This document shows, one piece after another, positions 6,879-26,364 of a DNA stretch of 64,000 nucleotides (positions are counted from its first letter, which is position 1; each line of letters begins with the position of its first letter). This stretch comes from an uncultured Candidatus Saccharibacteria bacterium (GTDB lineage: Bacteria; Patescibacteriota; Minisyncoccia; Phycocordibacterales; JAKAEA01). Location: assembly GCA_964577595.1 (NCBI GenBank), contig CAZNZK010000004.1, positions 27,294 to 91,293 on the forward strand, given 5' to 3'. A program made the position numbers and the translations under genes. The notes beneath the pieces are model-generated. The model made no database searches and was not told the origin of the DNA. It saw only the letters and a list, made by a program, of their open reading frames with translations.

Positions 6879-8477
6879 TTATTTTTCTACGATAATAAAA
6901 GCTTCTAAGCGGTCGCCAGGCACAATGTCAAACTTTGATTCCACCATGGCGCCGAATTCCTGACCTTCCGGGATTTCGGTGGCTTTGGTTTTCTGACGCT
7001 GCAGTTCGCGCACTCGGCCGCGGCCGATTTCAAAGTCGCGGCGCATAATTTTTACTTCCGCGCCGAGTTTCATGAGACCTTTTTCCACGCGGCCGCCGAG
7101 GATCTGTTTGTCTTTTGCGCGACTGAAAAGTTTGAGGACTTTGGCGGTGCCGGTGGGCTCCTCCACTTTCATTTTTGGTACCTGATTTACCGCGTGTTCG
7201 CCGAGCCATTCGGAAAGCTTGTAAATAATGTCAAAAAGCTGGATGTTGACGCCACTATTTTGGCTCATGCCTTTGGCGGCACTACCGACACCAACACCGA
7301 AACCGAGAATAATTGCTTTTTTATCGGACAGGGCGGTTTTTATATCGCTTTCGTTAACATCGCCGATGCCGCTACTGACGACTTTGATAGTAAGGCGGTC
7401 GTGGTGGATTTTTGCCACTTCTTGTTTTAAAGCATCCAAGCCGCCGACGTCAGCGGCTTTGAGAATGAGGGGCAGAGAACCAACAGGCATTTCTTCGGCG
7501 GGTTCGGTGGTTGTTCCAGTAGCAGTAACAGCCGCTGGCTTAGCGCTTGGCCTCATCACTCGCGGTTTTTGTTCCGAACGCTTATTTTTTTCAGTTTCAA
7601 TGAATACCTCAGCTTCTTTCTTTGAATCAAATGTTTGAAATGGGGAACCGACGGGTGGTAATTCGCTCCAACCGAAAAGGCGCACAGGGCTTGAGAAGCT
7701 TGCCTCTTTTATAGGAGCGCCAGCGGTGGTTTCCATGACACGCACTGGGGTGGAGGCGAGGCCGGCGACAATAGTGGTCCCAGTGCGGATGGTGCCGTTC
7801 TTAATAATAAGCGTGGCAGCAATGCCTTTTTTGCGGTCTATGGCCGCGTCAACGATAATGCCGGTAGCCGGCACATTTGCGTCGCCAGTGAGCGCGGCAA
7901 GGTCGGCGGTCAAATCCACCATGTCCAAAAGCTCGGGCACGCCTTGGCCAGTTTTGGCCGAAATAGCTACCCAGGAGACGTCGCCACCGTAGCCTTCAAC
8001 ATAAATGTCATTTTCGGCGAGATTGGTTTTGGTGCGCTCTACGCTGGCGCCCTCTTTGTCTATCTTATTGATGGCAACAATAAAAGGGATTTTAGCGGTA
8101 CGGATAGCGTCGCGAGCTTCAATAGTTTGCGGGCGGACGCCATCTTCGGCGGAAACAACTAAAATGGCAATGTCGGCAACATTAGCACCGCGCGAACGGA
8201 TGGCGGAAAAAGCTTCATGACCAGGCGTATCCAAAAAAGTAATACGACGCAGAACAGCTTCTGCACCATTGCCGCCAGTGGCGGTGCGCTCCACTTCATA
8301 AGCCGAAACTTTCTGGGTAATGCCGCCAGCTTCGCCGTCAACGGTGTTGGTGCGGCGAATGTAATCCAAGAGGGTGCTTTTGCCGTGGTCAACGTGCCCT
8401 AAAACCGCCACCACCGGAGGGCGGGATAGGGTGCCGTTGTTGGCAATTTTTATGGTGTTTTTATTTTTTGTTGGCAT
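6879..8477 (-). CDS. infB: Translation initiation factor IF-2 (short form)
   Basis: G1 motif VAVLGHVDHGKSTLLD, DTPGH, NKID. It has domain II and the C-terminal domains but lacks the long N-terminal region. Confidence 0.9.
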   Translation of the reverse strand: MPTKNKNTIKIANNGTLSRPPVVAVLGHVDHGKSTLLDYIRRTNTVDGEAGGITQKVSAYEVERTATGGNGAEAVLRRITFLDTPGHEAFSAIRSRGANVADIAILVVSAEDGVRPQTIEARDAIRTAKIPFIVAINKIDKEGASVERTKTNLAENDIYVEGYGGDVSWVAISAKTGQGVPELLDMVDLTADLAALTGDANVPATGIIVDAAIDRKKGIAATLIIKNGTIRTGTTIVAGLASTPVRVMETTAGAPIKEASFSSPVRLFGWSELPPVGSPFQTFDSKKEAEVFIETEKNKRSEQKPRVMRPSAKPAAVTATGTTTEPAEEMPVGSLPLILKAADVGGLDALKQEVAKIHHDRLTIKVVSSGIGDVNESDIKTALSDKKAIILGFGVGVGSAAKGMSQNSGVNIQLFDIIYKLSEWLGEHAVNQVPKMKVEEPTGTAKVLKLFSRAKDKQILGGRVEKGLMKLGAEVKIMRRDFEIGRGRVRELQRQKTKATEIPEGQEFGAMVESKFDIVPGDRLEAFIIVEK

Positions 8478-10083: not shown

Positions 10084-11289
10084 ATGTTTGCGAAAAAAAG
10101 AATCTATCTTGATTACGCGGCGGCAACGCCGGTGGATGGGCGCGTGGCTAAAGCGATGTGGCCATTTGCAGCAGAGAGGTTTGCCAATCCTTCAAGTATT
10201 CACGCGGAGGGAGTTCAGGCAAAAAAAGCCGTTACAGAAGCGCGTACGGGCATTGCTCGCATTTTAAACGTGCGTCCGGAAGAAATTATTTTTACAGCGA
10301 GCGGGACTGAGGCGGATAATTTGGCGATTGGCGGAGTGGTTATGGCGGCCCGCAAAAAGGGAATTACGGCACCGCATATTGTTACCACAAACATAGAGCA
10401 TCCGGCGATTCTGGAAACGTGCCGAGCGTTGGAGGAGTGGGGAATTAAAGTTTCTTACGTTCCGGTGGAATCTAACGGTATCATTGATGTAAAAAAAATC
10501 GCGGCGGCTGTAACGCCAGAAACAGTTTTGGTAACGGTGCAATTGGCCAATAGCGAAATCGGCACGATTCAACCGTTGCGTGAAATTGCGCGGGCTATTA
10601 CAGAATATAAAATTGCCCAGAATAAAAAAGATGAACCGACGCTCGGTCAGCTCAACTACCCCTACTTTCATACCGATGCTAGCCAGGGGCCCAATTTTCT
10701 GGATGTAAATTTTCAGAAATATGGCGTGGATATGATGACTTTGGATGCGGCTAAAATATACGGTCCGAAAGGTGTCGGTTTATTGGCGGTGAAGCGGCAA
10801 GTGACTCTGGAGCCCCAGATTTTAGGCGGAGGTCAAGAAGCTGGCCGGCGGGCGGGCACGGAAAATGTGCCGGCCATTATTGGTCTTGCCGAAGCTTTGA
10901 AAATTGCTGACCAAATGCGTGAAAAAGAGGCGACACGAATGGCCAAACTTCAGGAATATTTCATACAGTCTTTAGAAAAACTTTTCCCCATAAATAGGGT
11001 GATTTTGAACGGCGACCGTAATAAACGCTTGCCGAACAATGTTAATATAGGTGTGGGGGCGGCTGGAAAAGACGCGGAATTCATGGTTTTACAGCTAGAT
11101 AACCAGGGAATTGCGGCTTCGGCCGGCAGTGCCTGCACCAATCTCTCTACGGCGACGTATTCGTATGTGGTTGAGGCGATTAGTCCGGGATTAAAGAGTT
11201 CTTCAATCCGTTTCAGCTTCGGCCGCGGCACAAATCGTAAGGAATTAGATTTGACACTACGCATTCTGCGTTCTATAATAGAGTCCTAA
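10084..11289 (+). CDS. Cysteine desulfurase (NifS/IscS family, class V aminotransferase)
   Basis: ATG at 10084 after a GAGTTAGGGG RBS-like sequence. PLP-lysine context TLDAAKIYGPKGVG; active-site Cys in AASAGSACT. Confidence 0.85.
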   Translation: MFAKKRIYLDYAAATPVDGRVAKAMWPFAAERFANPSSIHAEGVQAKKAVTEARTGIARILNVRPEEIIFTASGTEADNLAIGGVVMAARKKGITAPHIVTTNIEHPAILETCRALEEWGIKVSYVPVESNGIIDVKKIAAAVTPETVLVTVQLANSEIGTIQPLREIARAITEYKIAQNKKDEPTLGQLNYPYFHTDASQGPNFLDVNFQKYGVDMMTLDAAKIYGPKGVGLLAVKRQVTLEPQILGGGQEAGRRAGTENVPAIIGLAEALKIADQMREKEATRMAKLQEYFIQSLEKLFPINRVILNGDRNKRLPNNVNIGVGAAGKDAEFMVLQLDNQGIAASAGSACTNLSTATYSYVVEAISPGLKSSSIRFSFGRGTNRKELDLTLRILRSIIES

Positions 11290-11301: not shown

Positions 11302-14046
11302 ATGCCACCACTGCAACACTTCACCACAAAAGCAAAAGAAGCCATTAGAAAAGCTCACGAGCTAGCTATTGAGCGTGGTCAAAATCACGTTAATCCGCTC
11401 CATTTACTGGCGGCTTTAATATTGCAGGAAGAAAGCATGGTTAGTGCCATCTTAGACAAGCTTGAAATAGACACTATTCTGTTAACCGATTCCCTAATGG
11501 AGTCTATTGAAGGCCCGGAAGGCGGCTCCACGCTTAATCCTTCCTACCAAATTTACCTAACGCCGGACTTAGCCCAGGTGCTTGCCGACTCCGAGCGGGT
11601 GGCAAAATCGCTCAATGACGAATTCATTTCCACGGAACACCTTTTTGTGGCCATGCTTGACGTGGCTGGCGCCGCTCGCGACTTGCTCGCTCGTTTTCGC
11701 CTCAACCGCGACGCGGTGGTAAAGGTCTTGGAAGAACTGCGTGCCAACAAAGTGACCGACGTTCACGGGCCAAAAAAGCCGAAAGCGCTCGCTCGTTACA
11801 CTCGCTCGCTCACCAAGCTCGCCGCCGAAAACAAGCTTGATCCTGTTATTGGCCGTGACAATGAAATCATGCGCATCATTCAAATTCTTTCGCGCCGCAC
11901 CAAAAATAATCCCATTCTCATTGGCGAGGCCGGTGTTGGTAAAACCGCCATCGTTGAGGGCTTGGCTCTGCGCATGGCCCAGGGCGATGTACCAGAATCT
12001 TTGAAGGACAAAGAGCTGGTATCGCTTGACCTAGGCGCGCTGGTGGCGGGGACAAAGTATCGCGGCGAATTTGAAGAGCGTCTCAAAAATATTCTTAAAG
12101 AAATTGAGCGCGCGGCTGGCAAAATCATTCTTTTTATTGATGAAATCCACACTATTGTGGGCGCCGGCGCGGCCGAGGGCTCTTTGGACGCCTCCAACAT
12201 GTTGAAGCCCGCTTTGGCGCGCGGTGAGCTCCGAGCGATTGGCGCCACCACCATCAAGGAGTATCAAAAGCATATTGAAAAGGACCCGGCTCTGACGCGT
12301 CGCTTCCAGCCGGTGTTCGTAAACGAGCCGTCCCTTGATGACACAGTCGCCATTTTGCGCGGTTTGAAGGAAAAATATGAGCTTTACCACGGCGTGCGTA
12401 TTACCGACGACGCCATTGTCGCCGCCGCCACTCTTTCTTCTCGCTACATCACTGATCGTTACTTGCCCGATAAAGCCGTTGACCTTATTGATGAAGCCGC
12501 TTCTTTTTTGAAAATCACTCTGGAGGATATGCCGCCGGTTTTGCAGGAAACGCATGCCAAAATTATGCGCTTGGAAATTGAGCGCGAAGCTCTTAAAAAG
12601 GAAACCACCAAAACCGCCAAGGACAGGGTGAAAATCATTGAAGCGGAAATCGGCAATCTAAAAGAGCAAACTTCCGAAATTGAGCTTAAGTGGAAAAATG
12701 AAAAAGAGACACTTGGCGAAATTAAAACCATCAAGAAAGAGCTGGAGCAGTCACGCTTGGAAGCTGAAAGCGCCGAAGCTCATGCCGACCTTGGCAAAGC
12801 CGCAGAAATCCGCTACGGCCGCATTCCCCAGTTGGAAAAAGACCTTGACCTTAAACTCAAACGCTTGAAGAAGCTGCAGAGCTCGCGCCGCATTCTGAAA
12901 GAAGAAATTATGGAGCAGGATGTTGCCGATGTGGTTTCGCGTTGGACGGGTATCCCCGTGGCTCGCATGCTTGAGGGCGAGGCCGACAAGTTGAGTCGTA
13001 TGGAAGAAGAGCTTCGCAAGCGCATTGTTGGTCAAGATGAAGCCGTTAAGAAAATCGCCGACACGGTGAAGCGTTCGCGCGCCGGCATTAGCGACCCTAA
13101 CCGCCCTATTGGCTCATTTATTTTCCTTGGCCCCACGGGCGTCGGCAAAACCGAGCTCACGAAAGCACTGGCAGAATTTATGTTTGATGACGAAAAAGCT
13201 CTCGTTCGCTTAGACATGTCTGAATTTATGGAAAAACATTCCATTTCCAAGCTTATTGGTGCGCCGGCCGGCTATGTTGGCTATGAAGAAGGCGGCAACT
13301 TTACCGAAATGGTTCGTCATCGCCCCTATTCCGTTATTCTTTTGGATGAAATTGAAAAGGCCCACCCTGAAGTGTTCAACGTGCTCCTCCAAGTGCTTGA
13401 TAATGGCCAGCTCACCGATGCTAAGGGTCGCCGCGTCAATTTCCGCAACACCGTCATCATTATGACCTCCAACCTCGGTGCCAACTACATTGATAAAATG
13501 CAAAAATTCGGCTTCGGCAAGGCGGAGAAGGGTTCCATTGAGGAAGATGGCCAAAAGGTAGATTACGAGCAAATAAAAGAGCGTGTCACCGAATCGCTCC
13601 GTGAATTCTTCCGTCCCGAGTTTCTCAACCGCATTGATGACACCATCATCTTTGATATCCTGAGTCGCGATGCTATCCGTAAAATCGTTGAAATTCAGGT
13701 TAATCTTATTCAAGCACGTTTGGCTGCCAAAGAAATCACTCTGGAAATTTCACCGGAGGTTGTGGATTATCTCGCCCGCGAAGGTTACAACCCACAATAC
13801 GGTGCACGTCCTTTGAAGCGTCTCATTCAAAATAAAATTCTCACCCCCGTTGCTTCCATGATGATTTCCAAAGGAATCATGCGCGGTGGGGCAGTGAAAG
13901 TGAGCTTGAAAACTGGTAGCGGCACCGCCAAAACGGGTTCAGCCGAATTCACCTTTGATGTTAAAAAAGGCAAAAAGGGCAGTCTCCTGCGTGAAGATGT
14001 TCTGAGTACTATAGAAACCAATATTCCCGAAGAAGTCAGAAAATAA
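11302..14046 (+). CDS. clpB: ATP-dependent chaperone ClpB
   Basis: 914 aa with two AAA+ modules ([15 protein letters not shown]; [15 protein letters not shown]) and a long middle coiled-coil domain, which distinguishes ClpB from ClpA. Confidence 0.9.
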
Positions 14047-14051
14047 TCCTG

Positions 14052-14525
14052 TTAATTTGCCAGCTTAGGGTGCCAAAAAATCTTCTCTATTTTCCGCTCG
14101 ACCGGTTGCCAGGCGTGTTCTTGCGGTGAGCCGGCTTTTTCGTCGTTGCTGATAGCTTTCCCGTTACCGACATAGAAGCCGATATGGGCGTGAATGCCGC
14201 TCGTACCGAAATCTTTTTTCGCCCATACCAGCACGGCGCCGACCGGCGGCTCTTTTTCAAGCGGTAATTCTTGCCAACCGCTCGTTTGTAAGTCTGTCAC
14301 TGTGCTTTCAACAGTGGCGTGCGGATTTTTTATCAAACCCGAAGCCGCCAAAACCCACGAAGCAAAAAATGAGCACGAAAGCTCGCCATTTTTTGTGATA
14401 TCGGTTTTTAGACCGTTCACGGTCGCGTATAAATTACGAAACGTATGCGTGCCAACGCTGTTATGAATGACCGCCAGATAGGTGTCTAGTAATCGGAACT
14501 GCACTGTGGATTTTACTTCTGTCAT
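14052..14525 (-). CDS. NlpC/P60-family (C40) cell-wall peptidase-like protein
   Basis: Cys in ELSCSFFASWVL and His in …GAVLVWAKKDFGTSGIHAHIGFYVGNGKAISND follow the NlpC/P60 pattern (GDLVFF…HVGIYIGNG). Start set at the internal ATG 14525 so it does not overlap tRNA-Tyr. Confidence 0.55.
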   Translation of the reverse strand: MTEVKSTVQFRLLDTYLAVIHNSVGTHTFRNLYATVNGLKTDITKNGELSCSFFASWVLAASGLIKNPHATVESTVTDLQTSGWQELPLEKEPPVGAVLVWAKKDFGTSGIHAHIGFYVGNGKAISNDEKAGSPQEHAWQPVERKIEKIFWHPKLAN

Positions 14526-15793: not shown

Positions 15794-16576
15794 TTATTCG
15801 CATTCCAGAAATTGTTTGAGCGATGGTCGCAAGCGGAGTAATTGCAGGGTGCTCCGGTGGATTTGTCGTACGAGCGATTCGCTGATGCCGAGCATTTCCG
15901 CCGTTTCTTTTACTTTCAGGTGTTCATAATAGCGGAGGATGAGTACTCTCCGGCTTCGTAGGTCAATACCCGAGAAGATGTGCCGAGAAGAATCTTCCAG
16001 GACAAGCCTTTGGTCGGGAGGTGCCTCTCGGTAATCTGCCGTTAGGTAGGAACTTCGTTGGTTTTCCGATTCTTCCGAAGAGCACACTATGTGGCTCATG
16101 AGCGGAAGCTGGTGTGTGCCGGAGGCGTATAGAGCTTTAAACGCCGCGGCGGGCAAGCCCAACTCTTCGTGCAATTCTTCAAAGTCCGGCTCGCGTCCCG
16201 AGCGCATTTTAAATGTGTTTCGTGCGGTTTCAATGCGCGTGTTACGTCGCCGAGCCACCACTGATACCCAGTCACACGCCCTCATTTGGTCAAGCATGGC
16301 GCCGCGAATGCGTTGGCTTGCGTACGTCTCAAAACGTACGCCCCGGTTTTGGTCGAAAGCCTGTATTGCTTTTCGGAGGCCGAGTATCCCAACTGAGTAT
16401 AAGTCGTCCTTATCTATAACGGCCTGCTCAGACAGGCGGGTATACATAACGCGAGCGAGAGTTCGAGCAAGTGGCGCGTAGTGCACGATAAGCTCGTTGC
16501 ACAACGCATTGGTTCTTTTGGCGCGATAACGGTTCCATACCTCCTGGATGGGTACTGCGGTTTTAGGCGTGCTCAT
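15794..16576 (-). CDS. RNA polymerase sigma factor (sigma-70 family, alternative/FliA-SigB-like size class)
   Basis: 260 aa with region 2 (DLYSVGILGLRKAIQAFDQNRGVRFETYASQRIRGAM), region 3, and a region 4 HTH (ETAEMLGISESLVRQIHRSTLQLLR). Confidence 0.8.
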   Translation of the reverse strand: MSTPKTAVPIQEVWNRYRAKRTNALCNELIVHYAPLARTLARVMYTRLSEQAVIDKDDLYSVGILGLRKAIQAFDQNRGVRFETYASQRIRGAMLDQMRACDWVSVVARRRNTRIETARNTFKMRSGREPDFEELHEELGLPAAAFKALYASGTHQLPLMSHIVCSSEESENQRSSYLTADYREAPPDQRLVLEDSSRHIFSGIDLRSRRVLILRYYEHLKVKETAEMLGISESLVRQIHRSTLQLLRLRPSLKQFLECE

Positions 16577-16708: not shown

Positions 16709-17893
16709 ATGGAACCGCTTGCGTCTAAAATACGGCCGAAAAATTTGGGGGATTTTGTGGGGCAGGAGCATTTGGTGGGGGCAGGGAAGCCGCTGGCTAT
16801 TGCGGTGGCTGAGAAGCATTTGTTCTCATTTATTCTGTGGGGCCCGCCGGGGACGGGCAAAACCACGCTGGCGCGTATTTATGCCAATGCTTTGGACGCG
16901 CATCTTTTTGAGCTCTCGGCTGTTTCCGCGGGCAAGGATGACATTCGCGCTATTGTTGAGGACAGGAGTATTTTAGATCAGCGGCCCAAGCTCTTGTTTT
17001 TAGACGAAATTCACCGTTTTAATAAAGCTCAGCAGGATTTTCTGTTGCCGTTTGTGGAAAGCGGCGTGCTCACGCTCATCGGCGCGACCACCGAGAACCC
17101 AAGCTTTGAAGTCATCCCGGCGCTCCTTTCGCGCTGTCGTGTTTTTATTTTGAATGAGCTTTCTGAGGCAAATGTAGAGAAAATTATCGTGCGCGCGGCC
17201 AAAGAAGTCAAAATTAAAATCTTGAAAGAGGCACGCACGTGGCTGGCCAACATGGCCAATGGCGACGCCCGCCAGGCCATTACGGTGCTGGAAAATGCCC
17301 ACCAGCTTTATGGCGACAAAATCACCGTAGAGGCACTTAGGGAAACTATTCAAAATAAATTCTTGCGTTTTGATAAAAAAGGCGAGGAGCACTACAACGT
17401 CATCAGTGCGTTCATAAAAAGTATGCGGGCCAGCAATGCCGACGCTGCGCTCTATTATTTGGCGCGGATGCTGGACGCCGGCGAAGACCCAAAATTTATC
17501 GCCCGCAGAATGGTTATTTTTGCCTCGGAAGACATTGGCCTAGCCGCGCCCACCGCCCTTGTGGTGGCCAACGACGTATTCAGGGCGGTAGAAACCATTG
17601 GTATGCCTGAATGTGCCATCAACCTGGCTCATGGCGTTTCCTATCTCGCTGGGGCGCCTAAGGACCGGAGCTCCTATAACGCCCTTCAGGCCGCCACCAG
17701 CGACGTTAAAAAGTATGGCAACTTGCCCGTGCCTCTACGCTTGCGCAATGCGCCTACCAAGCTCATGAAAGAAATTGGCTATGGCGAAGGCTATGAAAAA
17801 TACAGCAAAGAAAGTTTTTTGCCCGATAAAATTAAAGATAACGTCTACCTCAAACGGCCGCCACAGACCCCCAAGAAAAAGGGGAATAAATAG
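16709..17893 (+). CDS. rarA: Replication-associated recombination protein A (AAA+ ATPase RarA/MgsA)
   Basis: MEPLASKIRPKNLGDFVGQEHL…LWGPPGTGKTTLARIYA…; start at ATG 16709. Confidence 0.85.
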   Translation: MEPLASKIRPKNLGDFVGQEHLVGAGKPLAIAVAEKHLFSFILWGPPGTGKTTLARIYANALDAHLFELSAVSAGKDDIRAIVEDRSILDQRPKLLFLDEIHRFNKAQQDFLLPFVESGVLTLIGATTENPSFEVIPALLSRCRVFILNELSEANVEKIIVRAAKEVKIKILKEARTWLANMANGDARQAITVLENAHQLYGDKITVEALRETIQNKFLRFDKKGEEHYNVISAFIKSMRASNADAALYYLARMLDAGEDPKFIARRMVIFASEDIGLAAPTALVVANDVFRAVETIGMPECAINLAHGVSYLAGAPKDRSSYNALQAATSDVKKYGNLPVPLRLRNAPTKLMKEIGYGEGYEKYSKESFLPDKIKDNVYLKRPPQTPKKKGNK

Positions 17894-17907
17894 CGCTTTT
17901 TGTGAAG

Positions 17908-17935
17908 TTGACGACATCGCCTCGTTTGCTATAAT
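17908..17935 (+). promoter_or_regulatory. Sigma-70-like promoter TTGACG-16 nt-TATAAT
   Basis: -35 at 17908..17913, 16-nt spacer, -10 at 17930..17935. The next downstream plus-strand ORF is the MGMT-family gene at 18535, separated from this promoter by the terminator at 18070..18102 and the minus-strand MazF-like gene. Confidence 0.55.
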
Positions 17936-17941
17936 TATAAG

Positions 17942-18102
17942 GACTTTTGGTTCTGGTGATTGTCCGTCGGATTATCATCACAGCCCCGCGGTGGCAGAAA
18001 TGCCGCCGCCGACAAAGTAAACAATGGCTTCGGCCCGACTCCATCGCAAGGTGGAGGCACACAAAGAGGAGACTCAAGGCAATAGGGCTTTGAGTCTTTT
18101 CG
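17942..18102 (+). ncRNA. Candidate ~160-nt structured small RNA (unknown family), bounded by the promoter above and an intrinsic terminator
   Basis: Helices capped by stable tetraloops: GCGGUGGCA-GAAA-UGCCGCCGC, GGC-UUCG-GCC, CCAUC-GCAA-GGUGG. The terminator AGACTCAA…TTGAGTCT+TTTTCG at 18070..18102 overlaps the 3' end of the convergent MazF-like gene. Confidence 0.4.
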
Positions 18103-18478
18103 TAAGTTCTTTAAATTCTTCTTCCTTCATAATACCTATTAGATTAGCCAAACGTTTTGTGTCAATTAATCGGAGTTGAGAAAGGATTACTGCGCCCCTA
18201 ATTAAATCTAGGGATGCAATGGGGAAATAATATTTTTGTAAATGGGTCGCCACCGCTCTATTCGAGGTTGTTACGGGTAGTACCCAGCATATATCTTTAC
18301 TAAACTTTCTAAAAATAATAATAGGGCGAGCAAATTCTTTCGAGTCCCCATCTTGTTCTGAGCCGATATTTATGCCGAGGTAGCAAAACCAAATTTCTCG
18401 TTCATGAAAAAATGGCCGATTCGTTTTCGCCTCAATAATTTTCTTCTTTTCGCTCCACTTTTGAAAATCTTTTTCCAC
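18074..18478 (-). CDS. MazF/PemK-family (CcdB/MazF fold) toxin-like protein with no adjacent antitoxin
   Basis: …REIWFCYLGINIGSEQDGDSKEFARPIIIFRKFS…ICWVLPVTTS…ILSQLRLID… parallels E. coli MazF (GDLIWVDFDPTKGSEQAGHRPAVVLS…CLCVPCTTQ…ADQVKSI). It is paralogous to 56725..57078. Confidence 0.55.
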   Translation of the reverse strand: MEKDFQKWSEKKKIIEAKTNRPFFHEREIWFCYLGINIGSEQDGDSKEFARPIIIFRKFSKDICWVLPVTTSNRAVATHLQKYYFPIASLDLIRGAVILSQLRLIDTKRLANLIGIMKEEEFKELTKRLKALLP

Positions 18479-18534
18479 CGTGCTACGCTAGCATGCGGGA
18501 GTTAAAATTCTCATCAATTTTTCTTAAATCTTCT

Positions 18535-18837
18535 ATGAAATCGTTCAAAGAAAAAGTCTACGCGCTCGCGCAAAAAATTCCAGCCGGAAAAGTGGCCACG
18601 TATGGTCAGCTTGCTACGATGGCGGGCAATTTCAAGGCGGCACGGGCAGTGGGGGCTCTCATGAGGCATAATCCCGACAATAAACTCGTTCCATGCCACC
18701 GCGTTGTAGCTGCGAATGGGGTATTAACAGGCTTCGCTTTTGGCGGCATCGTAGTTAAGAAGAAGAAACTTAAAAAGGAAGGAGTTGTTTTTAACGGCGA
18801 GCGCGTCAACGTGGCAATTTCTGGTTGGCGTCAATAA
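18535..18837 (+). CDS. MGMT-family protein (6-O-methylguanine-DNA methyltransferase DNA-binding/active-site domain)
   Basis: …VATYGQLATMAGNFKAARAVGALMRHNPDNKLVPCHRVVAANGVLTGFAFG… with the PCHRV active-site motif. Start at ATG 18535. Confidence 0.7.
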   Translation: MKSFKEKVYALAQKIPAGKVATYGQLATMAGNFKAARAVGALMRHNPDNKLVPCHRVVAANGVLTGFAFGGIVVKKKKLKKEGVVFNGERVNVAISGWRQ

Positions 18838-18897
18838 TTCCATATCGTTTTCAAAATGCCTGTTTTTTGCTACTATCAGGCTCGTAGCAAAGCATCT

Positions 18898-18969
18898 GGG
18901 CCTATAGTTTCAATGGTAAAACGACGGTCTCCAAAACCGCAGTTCCCCGTTCGAGTCGGGGTGGGCCCG
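18898..18969 (+). tRNA. tRNA-Trp (anticodon CCA)
   Basis: GGGCCTA acceptor, D-arm GTTT-CAATGGTA-AAAC, anticodon loop CTCCAAA, T-arm CCCCG-TTCGAGT-CGGGG, 3' TGGGCCC-G. Confidence 0.8.
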
Positions 18970-18984
18970 CAGTGAAGCACCACT
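18964..18984. repeat. Left copy of the 21-bp direct repeat ggcccgcagtgaagcaccact (last 6 nt of tRNA-Trp plus 15 nt downstream)
   Basis: Exact match to 22071..22091. Confidence 0.8.
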
Positions 18985-19184
18985 TTCAGTCCTGATAATT
19001 AATTTCTATGTCGCACGAGAGCGGCCGGAATCGTATTTCCGGACATTCCTTGCGCGTTATTGTAATTCAAAATATACTAGTCACATTGGAATTACATGTT
19101 TCTGAATTCGCATACACTTGAATTAGAGATAGTCTAATTCTAATCGATTTGAATTAAATTAACGCTAATTCTAATGCACTAAAT

Positions 19185-20318
19185 ATGGCTGAAAATAAGG
19201 CTAAAACACCATTTGATTTACCCAAACTTCCACCTTTAATTGATTATAAGGAGCTGGTTGAACATATAAGCTCTGCTCATGCGGCGTTGGCTCGGTTAGA
19301 TGAAATGCTTAAACACGTTAGCAACCCAGCTCTTATAGAAAGGACGTTTCTTACTCGCGAAGCTGTTTTGAGCTCTCAAATTGAGGGTACACAAGCAACT
19401 CTTGAAGAGGTTATGAAAAAAGAAGCGGAAGATGGAAAAAAGATTTCTGAAACGACGGAAAAAGCTCGCGATATTCAAGAAATCATTAATTATCGTGACG
19501 CTTTACGCGAAGGGGTGGAAATTATAAATCAAGGAGAATTTCTCGCGGAAAACAATGTTAAAAAACTCCACAGAATTCTTCTTGAATCGGTGCGTGGAAA
19601 AACCAGAGCGCCAGGTGAATTTAGACGAGAGCAAGTTTATATTGCACCGCCAGGAACTCCCATGTCGGAAGCCGGGTATATTCCTCCAGTACCACAAGAG
19701 GTTCCGGAGCTGTATGGAAATTTTGATAAATATCTCAATACTGCAACATCTGAAAGGGACGTGCTCGTGCAAATCGCAATTTCCCACTATCAATTTGAGG
19801 CAATTCACCCATTTAAAGATGGTAATGGCCGGATGGGGCGTCTGTTGATACCTTTGTTTTTGTATCAAAGGAAAATTATCGCTCGACCACTTATGTATAT
19901 TAGTCAATATTTTGAAGAACACCGACGGGATTATTACGACTTACTTGCGGATGTTAGCTATAAGGATGCTTGGATACCATGGCTACGTTTTTTTCTGAAC
20001 GGTTTAAAAGAACAAGCTCTGGATGCATGCCAATTGGCAGGTAAAATTATCACGCTCCGTGATGAGTATCAAAAACATCTCGCTGAATTTAATTCGACAT
20101 ATGCCTTTAATTTACTGGATGCTATCTTCGCCAGGCCAATTTTTACGGTTGTCAAAATTCAAGAAAGATCGGGAATCAAGGTTTACCAGACTCTATTAAA
20201 TTTGGTTGAAAAGTTTGTTGACGCGGGGATTTTGCAAGATTCCACTCCTGATAAAAAAAGAAATAAAATATATGAGTTCAAGCCCCTCCTAAAACTGTTG
20301 GAGAATAAAAAGGAGTAA
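19185..20318 (+). CDS. Fic family protein (AMPylase/Fido domain)
   Basis: Fic motif HPFKDGNGRMGRLLIPLFL, 377 aa. Confidence 0.85.
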   Translation: MAENKAKTPFDLPKLPPLIDYKELVEHISSAHAALARLDEMLKHVSNPALIERTFLTREAVLSSQIEGTQATLEEVMKKEAEDGKKISETTEKARDIQEIINYRDALREGVEIINQGEFLAENNVKKLHRILLESVRGKTRAPGEFRREQVYIAPPGTPMSEAGYIPPVPQEVPELYGNFDKYLNTATSERDVLVQIAISHYQFEAIHPFKDGNGRMGRLLIPLFLYQRKIIARPLMYISQYFEEHRRDYYDLLADVSYKDAWIPWLRFFLNGLKEQALDACQLAGKIITLRDEYQKHLAEFNSTYAFNLLDAIFARPIFTVVKIQERSGIKVYQTLLNLVEKFVDAGILQDSTPDKKRNKIYEFKPLLKLLENKKE

Positions 20319-20368
20319 ATAAACCAGGTGCTATCCGTGGATTTTCAGCTCAATTGTGGCTTAAAATA

Positions 20369-20397
20369 GTTCTAATACTGTCCCATACGGCCCGCAG
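20369..20397. repeat. Internal att-like repeat gttctaatactgtcccatacggcccgcag
   Basis: Matches 22051..22079 with 2 mismatches over 29 nt and shares the ggcccgcag core with the tRNA-Trp 3' end. Confidence 0.7.
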
Positions 20398-20491
20398 CAA
20401 GATAGTGTTTAATTGTGTGTAATGTAGTGATTTTATGAGGTAATGCATGGTCGTAAGCCGACCTCGTTTTACAGTAACTGAGGTTGAATAA

Positions 20492-21385
20492 ATGCCCTCA
20501 ATCTACTATAATTCGGGTATGGAAAAACCTAGTCTTGCGTCAGATGCGGCTCTCGCAAGCACACCAGTCGAAAAGGCGATTGAAAACGTGCACGCAGATG
20601 CTGAGGTGACTAAGGACACACGTCCTGACATGGATACCGAGGAAAAAATAACGCAGTTGTCTAAAAGTAAACTTGAATTAGGCTCAACAATTGATGATCT
20701 TGATTCAAGAATATCGCAACATACGCAATCATTACACAGTGTTCGGGCGGCGCTCGACTTGCCAGAGCGGGCTGTGACTAACGACCCCGGATCGGTTGAG
20801 CTTAAGGACTTGATTGATGCGAAGAAAAAAGCTGAAGATAAACTCGAAAAAAAAGATGCATCGTTGACTAGCGAAGAAATGAAAGCAGAAGATACTGAAC
20901 AAGAAAGATTGAACAACAAAAAGATACAAGAGGGCTTATATTACTGCTCTCAATCAACACAAAAATTTGCAAACACATTACACGAACGAGTTGAGAGTGG
21001 TTTTGATTCCCTTGTTGATGATCAAGGACTTTCTGCAATTGATATTGCAACTGGGGGTTTAGATCAGGTAGGTAGTGAAAAAGAGATTGACTCTGCTCAA
21101 TTGCAAAAAACAGTAAGTACGCTGTATCAAGGTTTAGATGCTTTTGGGCGAGCGGAATCTGACAATACCCATCCCGCCGATAGTGCCGAAAGTCTGGAGT
21201 CCATGGCTTATGCGTTGAAGTCACTGCACGAAGGTGTGGGTGTAGTAAAGAACGCACTCAGTGTGCAAGGAAAAAAGTATCTTGATTCAGTAAATATCCT
21301 GCAAAAAATAGAGGATGAGGTGATTCCGCCAAGATACGATTTTCTGGTCAGAAAAATCAATGTGCTTAATGAGTATTATAGATAA
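20492..21385 (+). CDS. Hypothetical acidic, predicted-helical protein
   Basis: 297 aa, rich in E/D/K. No recognisable motif. Confidence 0.45.
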   Translation: MPSIYYNSGMEKPSLASDAALASTPVEKAIENVHADAEVTKDTRPDMDTEEKITQLSKSKLELGSTIDDLDSRISQHTQSLHSVRAALDLPERAVTNDPGSVELKDLIDAKKKAEDKLEKKDASLTSEEMKAEDTEQERLNNKKIQEGLYYCSQSTQKFANTLHERVESGFDSLVDDQGLSAIDIATGGLDQVGSEKEIDSAQLQKTVSTLYQGLDAFGRAESDNTHPADSAESLESMAYALKSLHEGVGVVKNALSVQGKKYLDSVNILQKIEDEVIPPRYDFLVRKINVLNEYYR

Positions 21386-21416
21386 TATAGAGAGGCCACA
21401 ATAGTTTCTAAAGTGT

Positions 21417-21974
21417 ATGAAAATACTTGCCATATCGGATAGGCCGCCAAGAAAGGGATTGAAAGATTTGGTTGAAAAGGAAAACATAAAATTAATTATT
21501 ACACTCGGCGATCTTGAATATCTTCAACTAATTGAGCTTAATAATATTTCAATTCCCAAGATCGGAGTGTATGGGAATCATTGCTCAGGTAACTATTTTG
21601 ATGATCTGGGAATTAAAAATATGCACTTACAGACCTTTGGGTTTGGCGGATTAAGTTTTGGAGGATTTGAGGGGTCTCATAAATACAAAAATGATCCATA
21701 TGCAAAAATGTACACTCAAGACCAAGCAAGGGAACTATTGAAAGACTTCCCCCACGTCGACGTCTTTGTATCGCACTCTCCACCCAAGGGAATAAATGAC
21801 CAAGACGATCTCGCCCATGTTGGATTAGAAGCATTGAGGGTCTACGTCCAAGAAAAGAAGCCAAAATATTTTTTACACGGCCACACATATCCTAAACCAG
21901 GAGAAGAGGTTACGCATTTTGAATCGACGGAAATCATTTATGTTTACGGGGATAAAATAATAGATTTACATTGA
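21417..21974 (+). CDS. Metallophosphoesterase (calcineurin-like, YfcE-like)
   Basis: Motifs ISD…GD…GNHC…HSPP…GHTY in the usual order. Confidence 0.7.
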   Translation: MKILAISDRPPRKGLKDLVEKENIKLIITLGDLEYLQLIELNNISIPKIGVYGNHCSGNYFDDLGIKNMHLQTFGFGGLSFGGFEGSHKYKNDPYAKMYTQDQARELLKDFPHVDVFVSHSPPKGINDQDDLAHVGLEALRVYVQEKKPKYFLHGHTYPKPGEEVTHFESTEIIYVYGDKIIDLH

Positions 21975-22050
21975 CCATTAATATGCAAATTTCCGACTCA
22001 TACATATCTAAACTTTCCCCATAATTTGCGTATTATTTTTAAACAATTCC

Positions 22051-22091
22051 GTTCTAATGCCGTCCCATACGGCCCGCAGTGAAGCACCACT
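22051..22091. repeat. Right composite repeat: the att-like arm (22051..22079) fused to a 21-bp copy of the tRNA-Trp 3' flank (22071..22091)
   Basis: gttctaatgccgtcccatacggcccgcag + tgaagcaccact. Confidence 0.8.
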
Positions 22092-22111
22092 CGTGTAGTG
22101 TGCAAAAGGAT

Positions 22112-23056
22112 ATGAAAAAGGTATTCATTAGCAATTCTCCAATTCAGGGTAGGGGAGTATTTGCCGCAGAAAATCTAAAAAAGAATGAAAAAGTTTTCAT
22201 GGTGAAAGGGCCTGTAATTATCTATCCAACACTGCCAGACGGAAGAATTGGTTCAGATTGGATGCACGTAGGACACAATGCGTGGAAAATCGCATACCAT
22301 GGTAGTCCTTGGGTTTTTCTCAACCACTCTTGCCGGCCCAATGCTTTTTTAAAAAATAAGTCTGACGTCGTGGCCATAAGGCCGATTAAAAAAGGTACAG
22401 AAATAACGCTGGATTATTCTTTCACTGAAGGGGGTCAAAATTGGAAAATGAAATGTCGGTGTGGTCTGCCCGAATGCAGAAAACAGATTCGAAGTATACA
22501 ATCTTTGCCGGAAACATTATTTAGGAAATACCAAGAGTATGTGCCCTCTTTTTTACAAAAAGAGTATTTAAAGCAGAAGGTATATGTTGGAAAAATAAAA
22601 TCAGGCCGTACTGTTTTTGTAAAGCGGCTAATAAAGAAAGGGGAAATATTATTTACCGTAGAAGGGCCACGCATCAGATTCCGAAAACCTCCAAAAGATA
22701 GCATTGGTTTTAAGTGGCTTGGTATTAGTAAAAACGAATGGTGTATTCCATTCAGAACCAATCCTTGGTTTTATGTGAGGCATTCGTGTGATCCGAATGT
22801 TGGTCTAGTCGATAAAAATAATGTGGTAGCACTAAAAATTATTGAGGCAAATGAAGAGATAGTCGTCGATGATTCAATTACAGAAGCTCAGGCAACATGG
22901 AAGGTGAAGTGTCATTGTGGCTCTAAAAATTGCCGCGGTATTATTAGGTCCATTCAGTTTTTGCCTAAAAAACAGTTTAAAAAATATTTACCCTACATCC
23001 CCGACTATTTTCAGAAAATATACAAACTCTATGCCGCACAAGATGGGTCGGTTTAG
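22112..23056 (+). CDS. Protein with two tandem SET domains (putative protein-lysine methyltransferase)
   Basis: Two SET cores (…VFLNHSCRPNAF…TEITLDYSF… and …FYVRHSCDPNVGL…EEIVVDDSI…), each followed by a post-SET Cys cluster (CRCGLPECRKQIRS and CHCGSKNCRGIIRS). Confidence 0.7.
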   Translation: MKKVFISNSPIQGRGVFAAENLKKNEKVFMVKGPVIIYPTLPDGRIGSDWMHVGHNAWKIAYHGSPWVFLNHSCRPNAFLKNKSDVVAIRPIKKGTEITLDYSFTEGGQNWKMKCRCGLPECRKQIRSIQSLPETLFRKYQEYVPSFLQKEYLKQKVYVGKIKSGRTVFVKRLIKKGEILFTVEGPRIRFRKPPKDSIGFKWLGISKNEWCIPFRTNPWFYVRHSCDPNVGLVDKNNVVALKIIEANEEIVVDDSITEAQATWKVKCHCGSKNCRGIIRSIQFLPKKQFKKYLPYIPDYFQKIYKLYAAQDGSV

Positions 23057-23163
23057 ATGCTGAAAATAAACAAAACAGTCCACTCAAATTTATTGTTCTG
23101 ACACAAATAAAAGAAAACCGTATAAAAGATTATGTAAAATGCAATATCTAATCGCGAGATTGG

Positions 23164-23850
23164 TTATTTCATTGCAACTGCCGCCTGAAAATCGCCGAGG
23201 GTGGAAAAAGTGCCGTGGACTTTATTATTGATGATGAAAAAAGGCGGGGTAGTGGTGACAGGAATTTTCGGCAAGGAGAGAAGCGATTGCACGGCGGCGA
23301 AATCATTGGTGTAGTCAAAAGAATACACATAGGCTTGTGGATTTTGCTGTTTAACGGCGCCGAGAATATATTCTTGAGCAAGGCACTGGTCGCAGGATGC
23401 GTCGGGATAAAAGTAGAGGACAAAAAGTGGGCTACTGGTGGCGGAAATCGGTGTCGCGGTTTTTGGTGCCGGGTTTAGTGCGCGCTCCAAAAGGTAGGCC
23501 TTTATTTCCAACAGAGAAAAGTAGCGTTCCAAGCGGAAAAGATCGGGATTCTCGGGCCCGAGCTGGTCTTGCATGAAGGCAAGCTTGGCCTGGAGATCAT
23601 TCATGTTAGAGGCGATAACGGCGGCGGTGCTGGTGGCGGAAGCATTGGCACCACTGCGCAAAACTTGCGCGGCGGTGAGTTCGGATTGTGCTTGTAGGGA
23701 AAGAATCTGGGTGGCCACAGCATCTTCCTCGTTCTGGAGAGAAATAGTTTTTCTATAATTTAAATAGTTACTGACGAGCCAGGCGCCGAAGAAAAGCGCC
23801 AGCGTCGCCCCTAGTGTTAGGGCGTAGAGCCATATGGGGATTTTTTTCAT
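23164..23850 (-). CDS. Membrane-anchored hypothetical protein with a C-terminal CxxC (thioredoxin-like?) region; co-operonic with the GT2 gene
   Basis: N-terminal TM, predicted coiled-coil middle, …YFYPDASCDQCLAQEY…; 4-nt overlap with the upstream GT2 gene. Confidence 0.5.
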   Translation of the reverse strand: MKKIPIWLYALTLGATLALFFGAWLVSNYLNYRKTISLQNEEDAVATQILSLQAQSELTAAQVLRSGANASATSTAAVIASNMNDLQAKLAFMQDQLGPENPDLFRLERYFSLLEIKAYLLERALNPAPKTATPISATSSPLFVLYFYPDASCDQCLAQEYILGAVKQQNPQAYVYSFDYTNDFAAVQSLLSLPKIPVTTTPPFFIINNKVHGTFSTLGDFQAAVAMK

Positions 23851-25166
23851 AGCGAAGGAGAGTTGGAATTTTTCACCGTGACAACGGCGCGCTCTTTTTG
23901 CCAGCTGGGGGCGTGCGAGATGGCCGCATTATACACCGACTTTATAATCCACCATGGCGAGAGAAGCGGAAAGAGAATAAAGTAGAGAACGGTGGAGCGG
24001 CCAAAAAGTGTTTTCTCGCCGGCCAGGATGCGGGCCTCAATAATCATGCCAATCATCAAGAAGTAGACGACGGCGATAAGCAGAAAGTGAGCTTGGGTGC
24101 TCACAAAAAACCAGTTCCAGGCAAAGTGCGGTGCTTGCCAGCCCACCACGCGCATTTGCACGGAGAAGTGCCAGAGGCTCAAAATGAAGCGGTAGATAAT
24201 AAAAGCGACGGAAGAGACAACGCCGATAATCATTGCCACACCAATGGGGACGGTGAAGAGGGCGAGGTTGCCGTAGCGTGGGTTCAGGAGCATGTGGCGG
24301 TAATCGCGGACGTTGAGGAGGAAGCCAGAGGTCCAGCGCACTCGTTGGCGATAGAGCTTGGCGATGGTGGCGGGGCCGGCGGTATACACTATTGCATCAT
24401 GGACATTTTCAATGTGTAAATGGCTGGCCTGAATGCGAAAAGCCAATTCCATATCCTCGGTGTTATGGGCGTGCTGGAAGTAGCCGATTTTCGCGAAAAG
24501 ATCGCGACGGAAAAGCGAAAATGGCCCGGGCGTAACATAAATAGCGCCGATGCAAGCCTGGACTTTTTTAACGAGCATACCAACAAGGTATTCGGTGTAT
24601 TGGAGTACTTGGATAAGCGTCTTCGGTTTATAGATTTTCATACCCGGAGTGACGGCGGCAACCATCGCGCCTGGCGTGCCTAATGGGGCGCTAAGGTCGC
24701 CAAAAAATGGCACCATTTTTTTCAAGGCATCGGAGGCAACGAGCGAGTCGGCATCCAGGCAACCAACAATGTCGGTACTGGCGTGCTCTATTGCGTAATT
24801 GAGGGCGGTATATTTGCCACCGTTTTCTTTGCGGTGAATTTCAAGCATTGCATAGCGGCTTTGCAGGTTTTGTAAAACGCTCCAGGTGTTGTCGCGCGAG
24901 CCGTCGTCTACGGCAACAATGCGCAATTTTCCGGCAGGATATTTAAGCGCGGCTAGGGATTCAACGGTTTTACCCACCGTTTTTGCCTCGTTGTAGCAAG
25001 GAACGATAATGGTGACGGAAGGGTAGAGGGCTGGCTCCCGCTCGGCTTTGGCCCTGTCGTCGCGGATTTTGCGTCGATTAACGGTGTAGACAACCAGAAT
25101 AAAGACCTGAAAATAAAGGCCGACGAATAAAAAGCAGTAAAGGGCTATATTCTGGAGCGTTTCCAT
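23847..25166 (-). CDS. Family-2 processive glycosyltransferase (cellulose/chitin/PNAG/hyaluronan-synthase-like), membrane-integrated
   Basis: VTIIVPCYNEAKTV…VAVDDGSRDNT…DAD…QRVRWTSG (QxxRW) plus multiple C-terminal TM helices. Start placed at ATG 25166 (METLQNI…) so it does not run into pheS. Confidence 0.8.
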   Translation of the reverse strand: METLQNIALYCFLFVGLYFQVFILVVYTVNRRKIRDDRAKAEREPALYPSVTIIVPCYNEAKTVGKTVESLAALKYPAGKLRIVAVDDGSRDNTWSVLQNLQSRYAMLEIHRKENGGKYTALNYAIEHASTDIVGCLDADSLVASDALKKMVPFFGDLSAPLGTPGAMVAAVTPGMKIYKPKTLIQVLQYTEYLVGMLVKKVQACIGAIYVTPGPFSLFRRDLFAKIGYFQHAHNTEDMELAFRIQASHLHIENVHDAIVYTAGPATIAKLYRQRVRWTSGFLLNVRDYRHMLLNPRYGNLALFTVPIGVAMIIGVVSSVAFIIYRFILSLWHFSVQMRVVGWQAPHFAWNWFFVSTQAHFLLIAVVYFLMIGMIIEARILAGEKTLFGRSTVLYFILFPLLSPWWIIKSVYNAAISHAPSWQKERAVVTVKNSNSPSL

Positions 25167-25221: not shown

Positions 25222-26364
25222 ATGACTAGAAAGATTGTCATTGCCGACCCGCAGGAGGACGCTCTCGTCGCCGAGCTAGAAAAAAGAACCGATGTTAAGG
25301 CCGAGCGCGTAAAACGGCTTTTACGCTTGCCCGACTTAACGAAAAAAGCCAACTCGCCCGTAAAAATTCTTTTTGATCAAATAATTTCTTTGCCTCGCTT
25401 TAAAAATTTTGACCTCGTTGATTTTCCGCGGATAGTGACGGTGGAGCAAGATTTTGACCTCCTTAATACACCCGCCAACCATCCAAGCAGAAAAGAAACC
25501 GACACCTATTATGTGGACGAAAACCATGTACTCAGAACGCAAATGACCGTTATGTGGTCGTTTTATCTGAAAGACAAAGACATTTTGAAAAAACTGGAAA
25601 CCGAGGGCGAAATCGGGGCGCTTTCAACCGGTATCGTTTTTCGCAAGGACGAAATTGACCGCCACCACTACCCGGCGTTTCACCAAATTGACGGTCTCTA
25701 CGTGTGTAAGCGGTCAAAAAAAGTTATCACCCAGAAAGATCTGGAGGAGGTGCAGGTTGATATGGCCAAAAGCATTTTCGGCGACGCCATAGAATACAAA
25801 TTTCTGGTGGATACATTTCCGTTTACCGACCCTTCCGTGGAAATGGACATGAAATTCCGTGGCGAGTGGATGGAGGTCAACGGCGCTGGCTTGGTGCATC
25901 CGCAGGTGCTGAAAAATTTTGGCTTGGATCCGGAAATCTACAATGGCTGGGCTTTCGGTTTCGGCGACCGTTTGGCAATGGTAAAAATGGGCATTCCTGA
26001 CATTCGTATTTTATGGTCGGAGGATTCGCGTATCACCTCGCAATTCAAAGACATTAACAGCACGTTTAAAGAAATCAGCAAATATCCGGCCGTGGTGCGC
26101 GACATTTCTTTCGTTGTGGACAAAAGCGTCACGCTTAATAATTATTACGAAATTATCAGAGATGAGGCCGAAAATCTCATTGAAGAAGTGAAGCTTATAG
26201 ATACGTTTGAAAATGAGAAAAAATTCGGTCCCGGCAAAATTTCCCATACCTTCAGAATCACCTATCGGTCATTAGACAGAACGCTCACTAATGACGAAAT
26301 AAACCGCATCCACGATGCGATCGTGAAAAAAACCGAGAAAGAGTTGCAGGCGGTGGTGCGGTAA
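25222..26364 (+). CDS. pheS: Phenylalanine--tRNA ligase alpha subunit
   Basis: …FPFTDPSVEMDMKFRGEWMEVNGAGLVHPQVLKNFGLDPEIYNGWAFGFGDRLAMVKMGIPDIR… class II core. No pheT follows. Confidence 0.85.
   Translation: MTRKIVIADPQEDALVAELEKRTDVKAERVKRLLRLPDLTKKANSPVKILFDQIISLPRFKNFDLVDFPRIVTVEQDFDLLNTPANHPSRKETDTYYVDENHVLRTQMTVMWSFYLKDKDILKKLETEGEIGALSTGIVFRKDEIDRHHYPAFHQIDGLYVCKRSKKVITQKDLEEVQVDMAKSIFGDAIEYKFLVDTFPFTDPSVEMDMKFRGEWMEVNGAGLVHPQVLKNFGLDPEIYNGWAFGFGDRLAMVKMGIPDIRILWSEDSRITSQFKDINSTFKEISKYPAVVRDISFVVDKSVTLNNYYEIIRDEAENLIEEVKLIDTFENEKKFGPGKISHTFRITYRSLDRTLTNDEINRIHDAIVKKTEKELQAVVR

Follow-up and report, generated by a model that had tools for sequence, protein, structure and literature searches.

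A variable low-GC hotspot at the 3' end of tRNA-Trp in a Patescibacteria genome, punctuated by a recurring element of about 65 nt

Genes and repeats 3' of tRNA-Trp

In a 64-kb stretch of DNA (the window, meaning the whole of the sequence analysed) from a Paceibacterota metagenome-assembled genome of the candidate phyla radiation (CPR), the 3' flank of a tRNA-Trp gene carries blocks of accessory genes separated by copies of a conserved element of about 65 nt, which we named E; relatives of the host's RarA protein fall in Patescibacteria/Paceibacterota. The tRNA-Trp gene, on the plus strand with a CCA anticodon, is intact (18898..18969; ARAGORN 18898-18970; Rfam RF00005 18898-18969, 54 bits), does not encode the CCA end of the tRNA, and is 95-100% identical in the three relatives compared below. 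It is the anchor, and the proposed attB side, of the locus. The DNA 3' of it is an accessory, low-GC variable hotspot running from 18985 to 23163 (4.2 kb, unstranded), with the tRNA-Trp trailer at one edge and the stop codon of a conserved gene, p228, at the other; its GC content is 39.2%, against 49-50% on either side.

A 21-bp direct repeat, GGCCCGCAGTGAAGCACCACT, occurs exactly twice in the 64 kb, at 18964..18984 and 22071..22091 on the plus strand, just as the initial annotation of this DNA had reported; its other factual statements held as well. The left copy comprises the last 6 nt of tRNA-Trp (GGCCCG) and 15 nt of trailer, AGTGAAGCACCACT. Because the trailer AGYGARGCRYYACT also follows tRNA-Trp in one of the relatives (L003), it is native to the tRNA locus in this clade. 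A second repeat, of 29 nt, reads GTTCTAAT(ACT/GCC)GTCCCATACGGCCCGCAG and lies at 20369-20397 and 22051-22079 with 27 of 29 positions identical, so the internal copy with two mismatches was also correctly described. Directly before the right 21-bp copy stands GTTCTAATGCCGTCCCATAC, which together with the first 9 nt of that copy makes up the 29-nt repeat, and the 9-mer GGCCCGCAG is found in the window only at three repeat sites, namely the two 21-bp copies and the copy at 20369-20397. Chance similarity or an assembly artefact has nothing in its favour except that the repeats are short, and we regard it as so improbable as to be negligible: the window holds no further match to the 21-mer with three or fewer mismatches, none of 100 shuffles gave a match at that tolerance, and homologous copies occur in two other genomes. 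The locus sequence is, moreover, found in seven contigs from at least four samples at 99.99-100% identity, and with the same arrangement in independent assemblies it is not an artefact.

The first cargo block (18985..20362, plus strand, 39% GC) holds a gene for a protein with Fic_N and Fic domains (19185-20318, plus strand; Pfam), which PADLOC calls SoFic. It matches the SoFic model PDLC03963 with E=1e-110 over model positions 11-359 of 361, and the solved SoFic structures PDB 3EQX, 3ZCN and 9TC4 with E~1e-35; its translation carries the catalytic motif HPFKDGNGR and the N-terminal inhibitory motif SSQIEG, in agreement with the family's full length and its HPFx[D/E]GN[G/K]R and (S/T)xxxE(G/N) motifs. 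To judge by these matches, it is a full-length SoFic-type defence protein; SoFic has been described as an abortive-infection anti-phage defence AMPylase (PMC12249575). Upstream of the gene are two AATTCTAAT boxes (19136-19144 and 19167-19175). Homologues likewise have short direct-repeat boxes just 5' of the start codon, with a box sequence that varies with the homologue (AATTCCAGT three times at L146 ~6890-7000; AACTCTAAY three times at L152 ~3110-3185). The boxes look like an operator, possibly recognised by the winged-helix domain at the C terminus of SoFic-type proteins. TTCTAAT occurs nine times in the window, and four of these matches are in the intergenic DNA of the islet. Fic homologues at 65-72% identity are widespread in Patescibacteria; we considered and rejected mobility of the Fic gene, the two homologues examined (68% and 70% identical) being single genes in unrelated contexts with neither E nor tRNA-Trp.

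The second block (20398..22044, plus strand, 40% GC) encodes two proteins. The first is an acidic helical orphan of 297 amino acids (20492-21385, plus strand) with no match in Pfam or PADLOC; a search of 1.84 billion cluster representatives gave 11 matches at E<=0.001, two of which are clear relatives (E 8e-68 and 2e-25; 50% and 30% identity). Its AlphaFold2 model (pLDDT, the predicted local distance difference test score, of 81) is a bundle of long helices with a disordered N-terminal stretch of 45 residues and has no significant fold match in the PDB; being such a confident all-helical bundle without a fold match, the protein is not a hidden recombinase. The relative at 50% identity sits on a 1.8-kb contig among different neighbours, and we set aside mobility of the orphan protein as an explanation. 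The second is a divergent metallophosphoesterase (21417-21974, plus strand), whose Metallophos_2/Metallophos match is marginal (27.6 bits against a cutoff of 27) and which matches PDC-S10 only in part. The cargo of Fic protein, acidic helical protein and phosphoesterase is as first annotated.

The third block is a gene for a protein with two SET stretches (22112..23056, plus strand; Pfam). It lies beyond the 21-bp repeat yet inside a low-GC variable block, 22110-23163, which at 37.5% GC is the lowest of the three. The right repeat had been taken as the edge of the islet, leaving the SET gene outside; because that gene is equally low in GC and absent from relatives, we instead count it as cargo and extend the hotspot to 23163.

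The cargo had also been called effector-like or defence-like. No known defence system matches the SET, phosphoesterase or orphan proteins, nor the GNAT and Zn-ribbon proteins that a relative carries at this site, so 'defence-like' is justified for the Fic protein, through its SoFic match, and for that protein only; an effector-like pairing of Fic with SET is speculation.

We compared the window with its three closest relatives, all of one narrow clade: L003 (JAJYGQ010000017; ClpB 88% and RarA 86% identical to those of the window), L141 (GCA_027341405.1; p228 54%) and L119 (VFSW01017100; ClpB 88%, RarA 85%). The left-hand order ClpB-p169-aminotransferase-L33-RarA-tRNA-Trp is common to all four genomes. 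The right-hand order p228-GT2-PheS is common to the window, L003 and L141, and the L119 sequence ends before that point. The gene p228 (23164..23850, minus strand), which belongs to no Pfam family, has orthologues of 53-54% identity in the same place in L003 and L141 and marks the distal edge of the hotspot, with GT2 and then PheS adjoining it. At the other edge, directly upstream of tRNA-Trp, is a short MGMT-type DNA_binding_1 protein with a PCHR motif (18535..18837, plus strand; Pfam), of which L119 has a 77% identical orthologue in the same position.

Between these flanks, in the interval from tRNA-Trp to p228, each genome has different genes. L003 carries a 1543-residue protein that combines helix-turn-helix repeats, an SNF2 helicase (with helicase matches to ZorD, DpdE and DrmD) and an S-adenosylmethionine-dependent methyltransferase, plus a small Y/N-rich protein; L141 has a GNAT gene, three small open reading frames (ORFs), two Zn-ribbon proteins, a 185-residue protein and the same Y/N-rich protein; L119 holds other genes again, on the opposite strand. 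All of these hotspots are AT-rich. In a short-word BLAST of one hotspot against another, nothing aligns except the tRNA, the copies of E and, for L003 with L141, the gene for the Y/N-rich protein. The window's cargo is absent from all three relatives, each of which holds other cargo at the site. The earlier view that the DNA 3' of tRNA-Trp is accessory is borne out by composition and by unrelated cargo within syntenic flanks. Nothing in L003 or L141 matches the SET protein, and both carry the Y/N-rich protein in that place. In these relatives p228 has this small secreted protein (L003 16394-16735; L141 10746-11093, minus strand; YYGGYQNYNGYHYY..., with NYNYN repeats) as its native neighbour; the window lacks it and has the SET gene in its place.

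Element E and its copies

The 21-bp and 29-nt repeats, previously read as private target duplications, are instead parts of copies of E, an element that the window shares with its relatives (alignment A1). Three parts make up E. The left arm is (TTCAAT)AATTCCGTTCTAAT with a small hairpin (ACTGT-N5-ACGG) after it, the core is GGCCCGC, and the right arm usually reads CCA and then ACTCGTG-N5-CACGAAAGGCGT. We found seven copies, two in the window, two in L003 and three in L141, all intergenic, between cargo blocks and in the orientation of the tRNA. The first copy in the window, W_M (20363..20397, plus strand; nhmmer with the left-arm model, E=6e-7, and alignment A1), has the left arm AAAATAGTTCTAAT, the hairpin ACTGT-CCCAT-ACGG and the 9-nt core GGCCCGCAG. 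The second, W_R (22045..22109, plus strand; nhmmer and alignment A1), has the left arm AATTCCGTTCTAAT, the hairpin GCCGT-CCCAT-ACGGC and the right 21-bp copy; in place of the usual 'CA' after the core it has the tRNA trailer AGTGAAGCACC, followed by the right arm ACTCGTGTAGTGTGCAAAAGG, whose last bases, AAGGA, are spaced from the SET start codon as a ribosome-binding site would be. The L003 copies R1 and R2 (11389-11433 and 16204-16248) form a direct repeat with 38 of 45 positions identical that flanks the gene for the 1543-residue protein, and the three L141 copies lie on the tRNA strand at 14290-14348, ~11593-11650 and 11183-11214. For copies carrying the arm in question, nhmmer E-values range from 1e-5 to 3e-12, except for the partial left arm of R1 (6e-3) and the diverged right arm of W_R (E 0.8, not significant). 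The same search found no further copies in the rest of the 64-kb window, in 13 kb more of the contig or in ~290 other fetched loci.

The two arms have different patterns of identity. The left arm of W_R matches that of the first L141 copy, E1, at 30 of 33 positions and that of L003 R2 at 28 of 33, and the two left arms within the window agree at 27 of 33; left arms are thus as similar between species as within the window. Right arms are homogenised within each genome (26/26 in L141, 24/26 in L003). In every one of the three genomes a near-perfect repeat of core plus right arm brackets one cargo block, of 3.1 kb in the window (21/21), 4.8 kb in L003 (31/33; 38/45 overall) and 2.7 kb in L141 (30/30); in all three, the conserved left arm is present in the copy on the distal side.

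E also resembles the tRNA itself. An alignment of about 60 nt pairs E with the tRNA-Trp T-arm, the 3' end and the trailer (CCGTTCgAgT against CCGTTCtAaT, then GGCCCGC, then GAGGCG..AC..GAAAG.CG), and with the L003 tRNA this similarity has a shuffle p of 0.003-0.03. Most simply, E would be a diverged paralogue of the 3' part of tRNA-Trp (T-arm and 3' end) together with the trailer or downstream region, which fits integration at a tRNA gene, an event that gives exactly such a product.

E could alternatively be a native cis element (a promoter with its leader, a terminator or a small RNA) descended from the region 3' of tRNA-Trp, with the cargo turned over by homologous recombination after DNA uptake, through the flanks and the E copies; the repeats would then be regulatory sequence that has been duplicated, and no att sites. 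Several features of the copies suit this reading, the main rival to the one preferred below; judging from seven copies in three genomes, we think it rather unlikely. An extended -10-like box, TGTTATAAT, lies 5-6 nt 5' of L003 R2 and of the second L141 copy, E2, and other copies are preceded by weaker -10-like boxes; every copy has a same-strand ORF downstream; the right arm of W_R supplies the SET gene with its Shine-Dalgarno sequence; three copies begin 44-45 nt past the preceding stop codon; the homogenised right arms are as expected from gene conversion; DprA is present (2057-3595 of L294, the contig beyond the window's end), making natural transformation plausible; and a search for a recombinase came up empty throughout. 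Other results speak against it. A generic scan calls neither promoter nor terminator at the copies examined (window and L003), and we rejected E as a canonical signal of either kind. As a structured RNA it was rejected too: it folds no more stably than shuffles (z +0.9 to -2.0), the two double-sided changes in its hairpins are equalled in 91 of 500 shuffles, so that covariation is not significant, and Rfam at E<=1 returns only the tRNA in window positions 17000-24000, which include the window's copies of E. Homology arms of 21-45 nt would be very short for RecA, and the reading leaves unexplained why the repeat starts exactly at the tRNA 3' end.

Probable serial insertion and its alternatives

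We found no tyrosine or serine recombinase in the five cargo blocks of the three genomes, and a Pfam search found none in the islet, the 64-kb window or ~13 kb of adjoining contig (~77 kb in all), which extends the earlier statement that the islet lacks an integrase. Searches of the IMG/VR, phage and plasmid collections for an autonomous integrative and conjugative element (ICE), integrative and mobilizable element (IME) or prophage using the same att site gave only chance matches to E patterns. A viral origin of the repeat was rejected after four IMG/VR pattern scans, which gave chance matches in high-GC coding DNA only, with one scan at zero; a phage or plasmid origin was rejected likewise, BLAST having found nothing except a short piece of Fic coding sequence.

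The lack of an integrase had tentatively been put down to decay or to mobilisation in trans. In the first case, a single 3.1-kb islet (18985-22070), once equipped with its own tyrosine integrase, would have entered at tRNA-Trp in two steps and later lost the integrase gene by deletion, the SET gene being native chromosome. An exact 21-bp repeat that includes the tRNA 3' end, an internal partial copy and low-GC composition are all as this account would have them, and decayed tRNA-linked islands without integrases are common. We hold it to be improbable all the same. The GC content of the SET gene is as low as that of the islet, and no relative has the gene. In two other species that same repeat arm flanks cargo that is unrelated and equally devoid of an integrase. 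The left arms, finally, match more closely across species than within this genome, and so predate its insertions or are independent of them. Different genes, the same repeat and no recombinase in the relatives therefore point to a small gene-swapping hotspot and not to one decayed island. Mobilisation in trans, as with CIMEs (cis-mobilizable elements), integron cassettes and Xer-dependent elements, is favoured because five independent integrase losses are less likely than cassettes that never carried an integrase.

On balance, then, we think it more likely than not that the 3' flank of tRNA-Trp is a hotspot in which non-autonomous cassettes have been inserted one by one, by a recombinase supplied in trans, at an att site derived from the tRNA. 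The reading takes together the repeats, the E family in three genomes, the differing cargo at one syntenic site, the composition and the recombinase searches, and from these we infer site-specific recombination as the mechanism. Each cassette would end in a left arm of ~35 nt, (TTCAAT)AATTCCGTTCTAAT plus a hairpin of 4-5 bp, joined to the core GGCCCGC, which corresponds to the last bases of the tRNA, and each insertion would push the native trailer and right arm distally. Left arm, core and right arm would together form the attachment site, recombining with the tRNA end or with an earlier copy.

The initial annotation had suggested two successive insertions at the tRNA 3' end; the repeat layout fits, and we propose an order for them. 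The cassette with the orphan protein and the metallophosphoesterase would have inserted at tRNA-Trp first. W_R would be the resulting junction, in which the cassette's left arm and the core are followed by the native trailer and native downstream sequence. The SoFic cassette would then have inserted at the tRNA-adjacent junction. Its product would be W_M, made of the SoFic cassette's left arm and 9 nt of core followed by the left end of the first block, and the 21-bp tRNA end and trailer beside tRNA-Trp would have been restored as the SoFic cassette's own copy. The SET gene would be a separate and probably older acquisition, distal to the site, and the recombinase would be encoded elsewhere or have been lost.

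A number of results weigh against serial insertion. Two of the copies fit it imperfectly: W_M has no recognisable right arm, and the most distal L141 copy, E3, lacks a left arm, so that extra decay steps are needed to fit the model. Similarity to the tRNA is weak and not significant for the window's own tRNA (p=0.2-0.3). E is known from three genomes of one narrow clade only and could therefore be an ancestral native element, not one borne by cassettes. No recombinase linked to E was found anywhere, and among 77 ORFs of 230-520 amino acids downstream of tRNA-Trp, taken from those fetched loci that have such an ORF, the 25 commonest of 61 Pfam families are housekeeping ones (MiaA, alanine racemase and ParB among them), a survey that a single integrase could escape. 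The empty site that had been put forward as a check, with tRNA-Trp abutting the SET gene, did not turn up: in 52 metagenomic tRNA-Trp loci, scanned with the 3' half of tRNA-Trp, none has the tRNA joined to SET or to p228, and seven strain-level contigs, reached through the Fic, p228 and MGMT genes, are all identical in arrangement. Nor was a circular intermediate or an alternative junction found.

In more distant relatives, inserts of 130-150 nt stand directly after tRNA-Trp (L087 1450-1600; L097 6653-6820), flanked by direct repeats of 13-14 nt of the tRNA-Trp 3' end (GGGGTGGGCCCGC). These are classic integration/excision scars, of the same kind as the locus in the window. Among other Paceibacterota contigs (L104 1650-1779; L099 and L112, downstream of tRNA-Trp; L110), some have two convergent tRNA-Trp copies and a short hairpin between them; in others the acceptor end of the tRNA recurs as its reverse complement within a terminator hairpin.

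Surroundings, significance and comparison with known systems

The upstream side of tRNA-Trp is variable too, because a PemK/MazF-like toxin gene between RarA and the MGMT-like gene (18074-18478, minus strand, 37.5% GC), with no adjacent antitoxin ORF, is absent from L003, L141 and L119; on that side, L141 has an unrelated ORF of 247 amino acids and L003 has nothing. Further upstream, between the L33 gene and RarA, a sigma-70-family gene with regions r2 and r4 (15794-16576, minus strand) is found in this genome only, with no match in the three relatives and, unlike the hotspot, with normal GC (~53%). On the other side, PheS (window 25222-26364; L003 18889-20022; L141 7474-8613) combines a tRNA-synt_2d core and an FDX-ACB domain in one chain of 380 amino acids, an architecture as in mitochondrial PheRS and not the usual bacterial alpha/beta, and has no adjacent PheT gene. 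Near and past the end of the window are RhuM-family fragments and a PIF1-type helicase (window 61696-62184; L294 7511-8458 and 6008-7492) and a second, weak PemK-like ORF (L294 16503-16856); the region is possibly a further accessory patch. On the opposite side, about 3 kb ahead of the window, the contig has a cluster of four small genes that resemble type IV secretion system pilin or TrbC (L139 17047-19261).

Patescibacteria have tiny genomes, and little has been described on how they acquire accessory or defence genes. The locus is a concrete candidate for such a site: at a tRNA-Trp 3' end with the 65-nt E, three related species each stack different small cargo, with no recombinase nearby. 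Should a trans-acting recombinase be found, the locus would amount to a compact system for capturing genes, and genetic tools for the group could possibly use it as a landing pad; otherwise the locus is a clear tRNA-anchored variable hotspot with a SoFic-type defence gene in a CPR bacterium, a useful annotation that holds no surprise. Its value would rise sharply with such a recombinase or with more E-bearing cassettes.

As a variable slot between conserved genes that holds lineage-specific defence-like genes (SoFic here, the SNF2 helicase-methyltransferase in L003), the locus resembles defence-island hotspots; it differs in that most of its cargo matches no known defence system and in being punctuated by a dedicated repeat. 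The Fic gene itself agrees with single-gene SoFic anti-phage systems in its full-length match and in both its HPFkDGNGR and SxxxEG motifs. It differs from them in its only modest identity to the solved SoFic proteins (E~1e-35) and in that a small downstream antitoxin like AS1 is not evident beside it.

Xer-dependent elements (integrative mobile elements exploiting Xer, IMEX) and pdif modules are likewise integrase-less, stand in tandem at one site and would need a host recombinase. The core here is, however, a tRNA 3' end. We rejected this class: GC skew is almost uniformly positive across the 64 kb and its cumulative curve has no turning point, so there is no terminus here, and E, on reading its sequence, has no dif-like palindrome of the 11-6-11 type.

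The locus also resembles integron cassette arrays. In both, short recombinase-less cassettes lie in one orientation, end in a conserved site of ~60 nt with a small hairpin, are stacked at a fixed anchor and carry accessory or defence-like cargo. The differences are that E lacks both the imperfect palindrome of an attC site, with its R''/L''/L'/R' boxes, and a GTTRRRY core, that the anchor is a tRNA 3' end and not attI, and that the Fic cassette, at least, brings an upstream region of its own in which operator-like boxes lie. An integron proper was rejected, since there is no IntI beside the array (upstream are the MGMT-like gene, PemK and RarA, and no tyrosine recombinase), and so was an attC site, which requires RYYYAAC/GTTRRRY boxes: the stems of E are only 4-5 bp long and GTTCTAA does not fit GTTRRRY. 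A bolder idea is that E defines a new cassette system in Patescibacteria, in which an arm of hairpin plus GGCCCGC mimics the T-arm and acceptor end of tRNA-Trp and a chromosomal recombinase captures cassettes and stacks them at the tRNA-Trp 3' end, a functional analogue of the integron with the tRNA as attI. We consider the idea quite unlikely. Searching the literature, we came across no account of a site like this one in Patescibacteria.

The closest precedents are tRNA-linked islands with tandem accretion and the CIMEs of streptococci. Differences from these exist: at 1.4-4.8 kb the blocks here are very small, none of the collections yielded an autonomous partner (ICE, IME or prophage) that uses this site, different species have a conserved element-side arm beside wholly different cargo, and the host is a reduced-genome Patescibacteria bacterium, with no excision or empty site observed. 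Of the features of a tRNA island of the tyrosine-integrase type, the locus has an intact tRNA, foreign DNA from 18985 onward, flanking repeats with the tRNA 3' end and atypical GC, and it lacks the integrase. With accretion islands and CIMEs the locus shares insertion at a tRNA 3' end that leaves the tRNA intact, direct repeats containing that end, tandem att-type copies that separate unrelated cargo, att-flanked blocks without a recombination module, and atypical composition; no recombinase is encoded in any of the five blocks of the three genomes, each of which has the tRNA end or a copy of E as its boundary. The locus is thus of a kind already known, a variant of tRNA-linked islands, accretion arrays and CIMEs.

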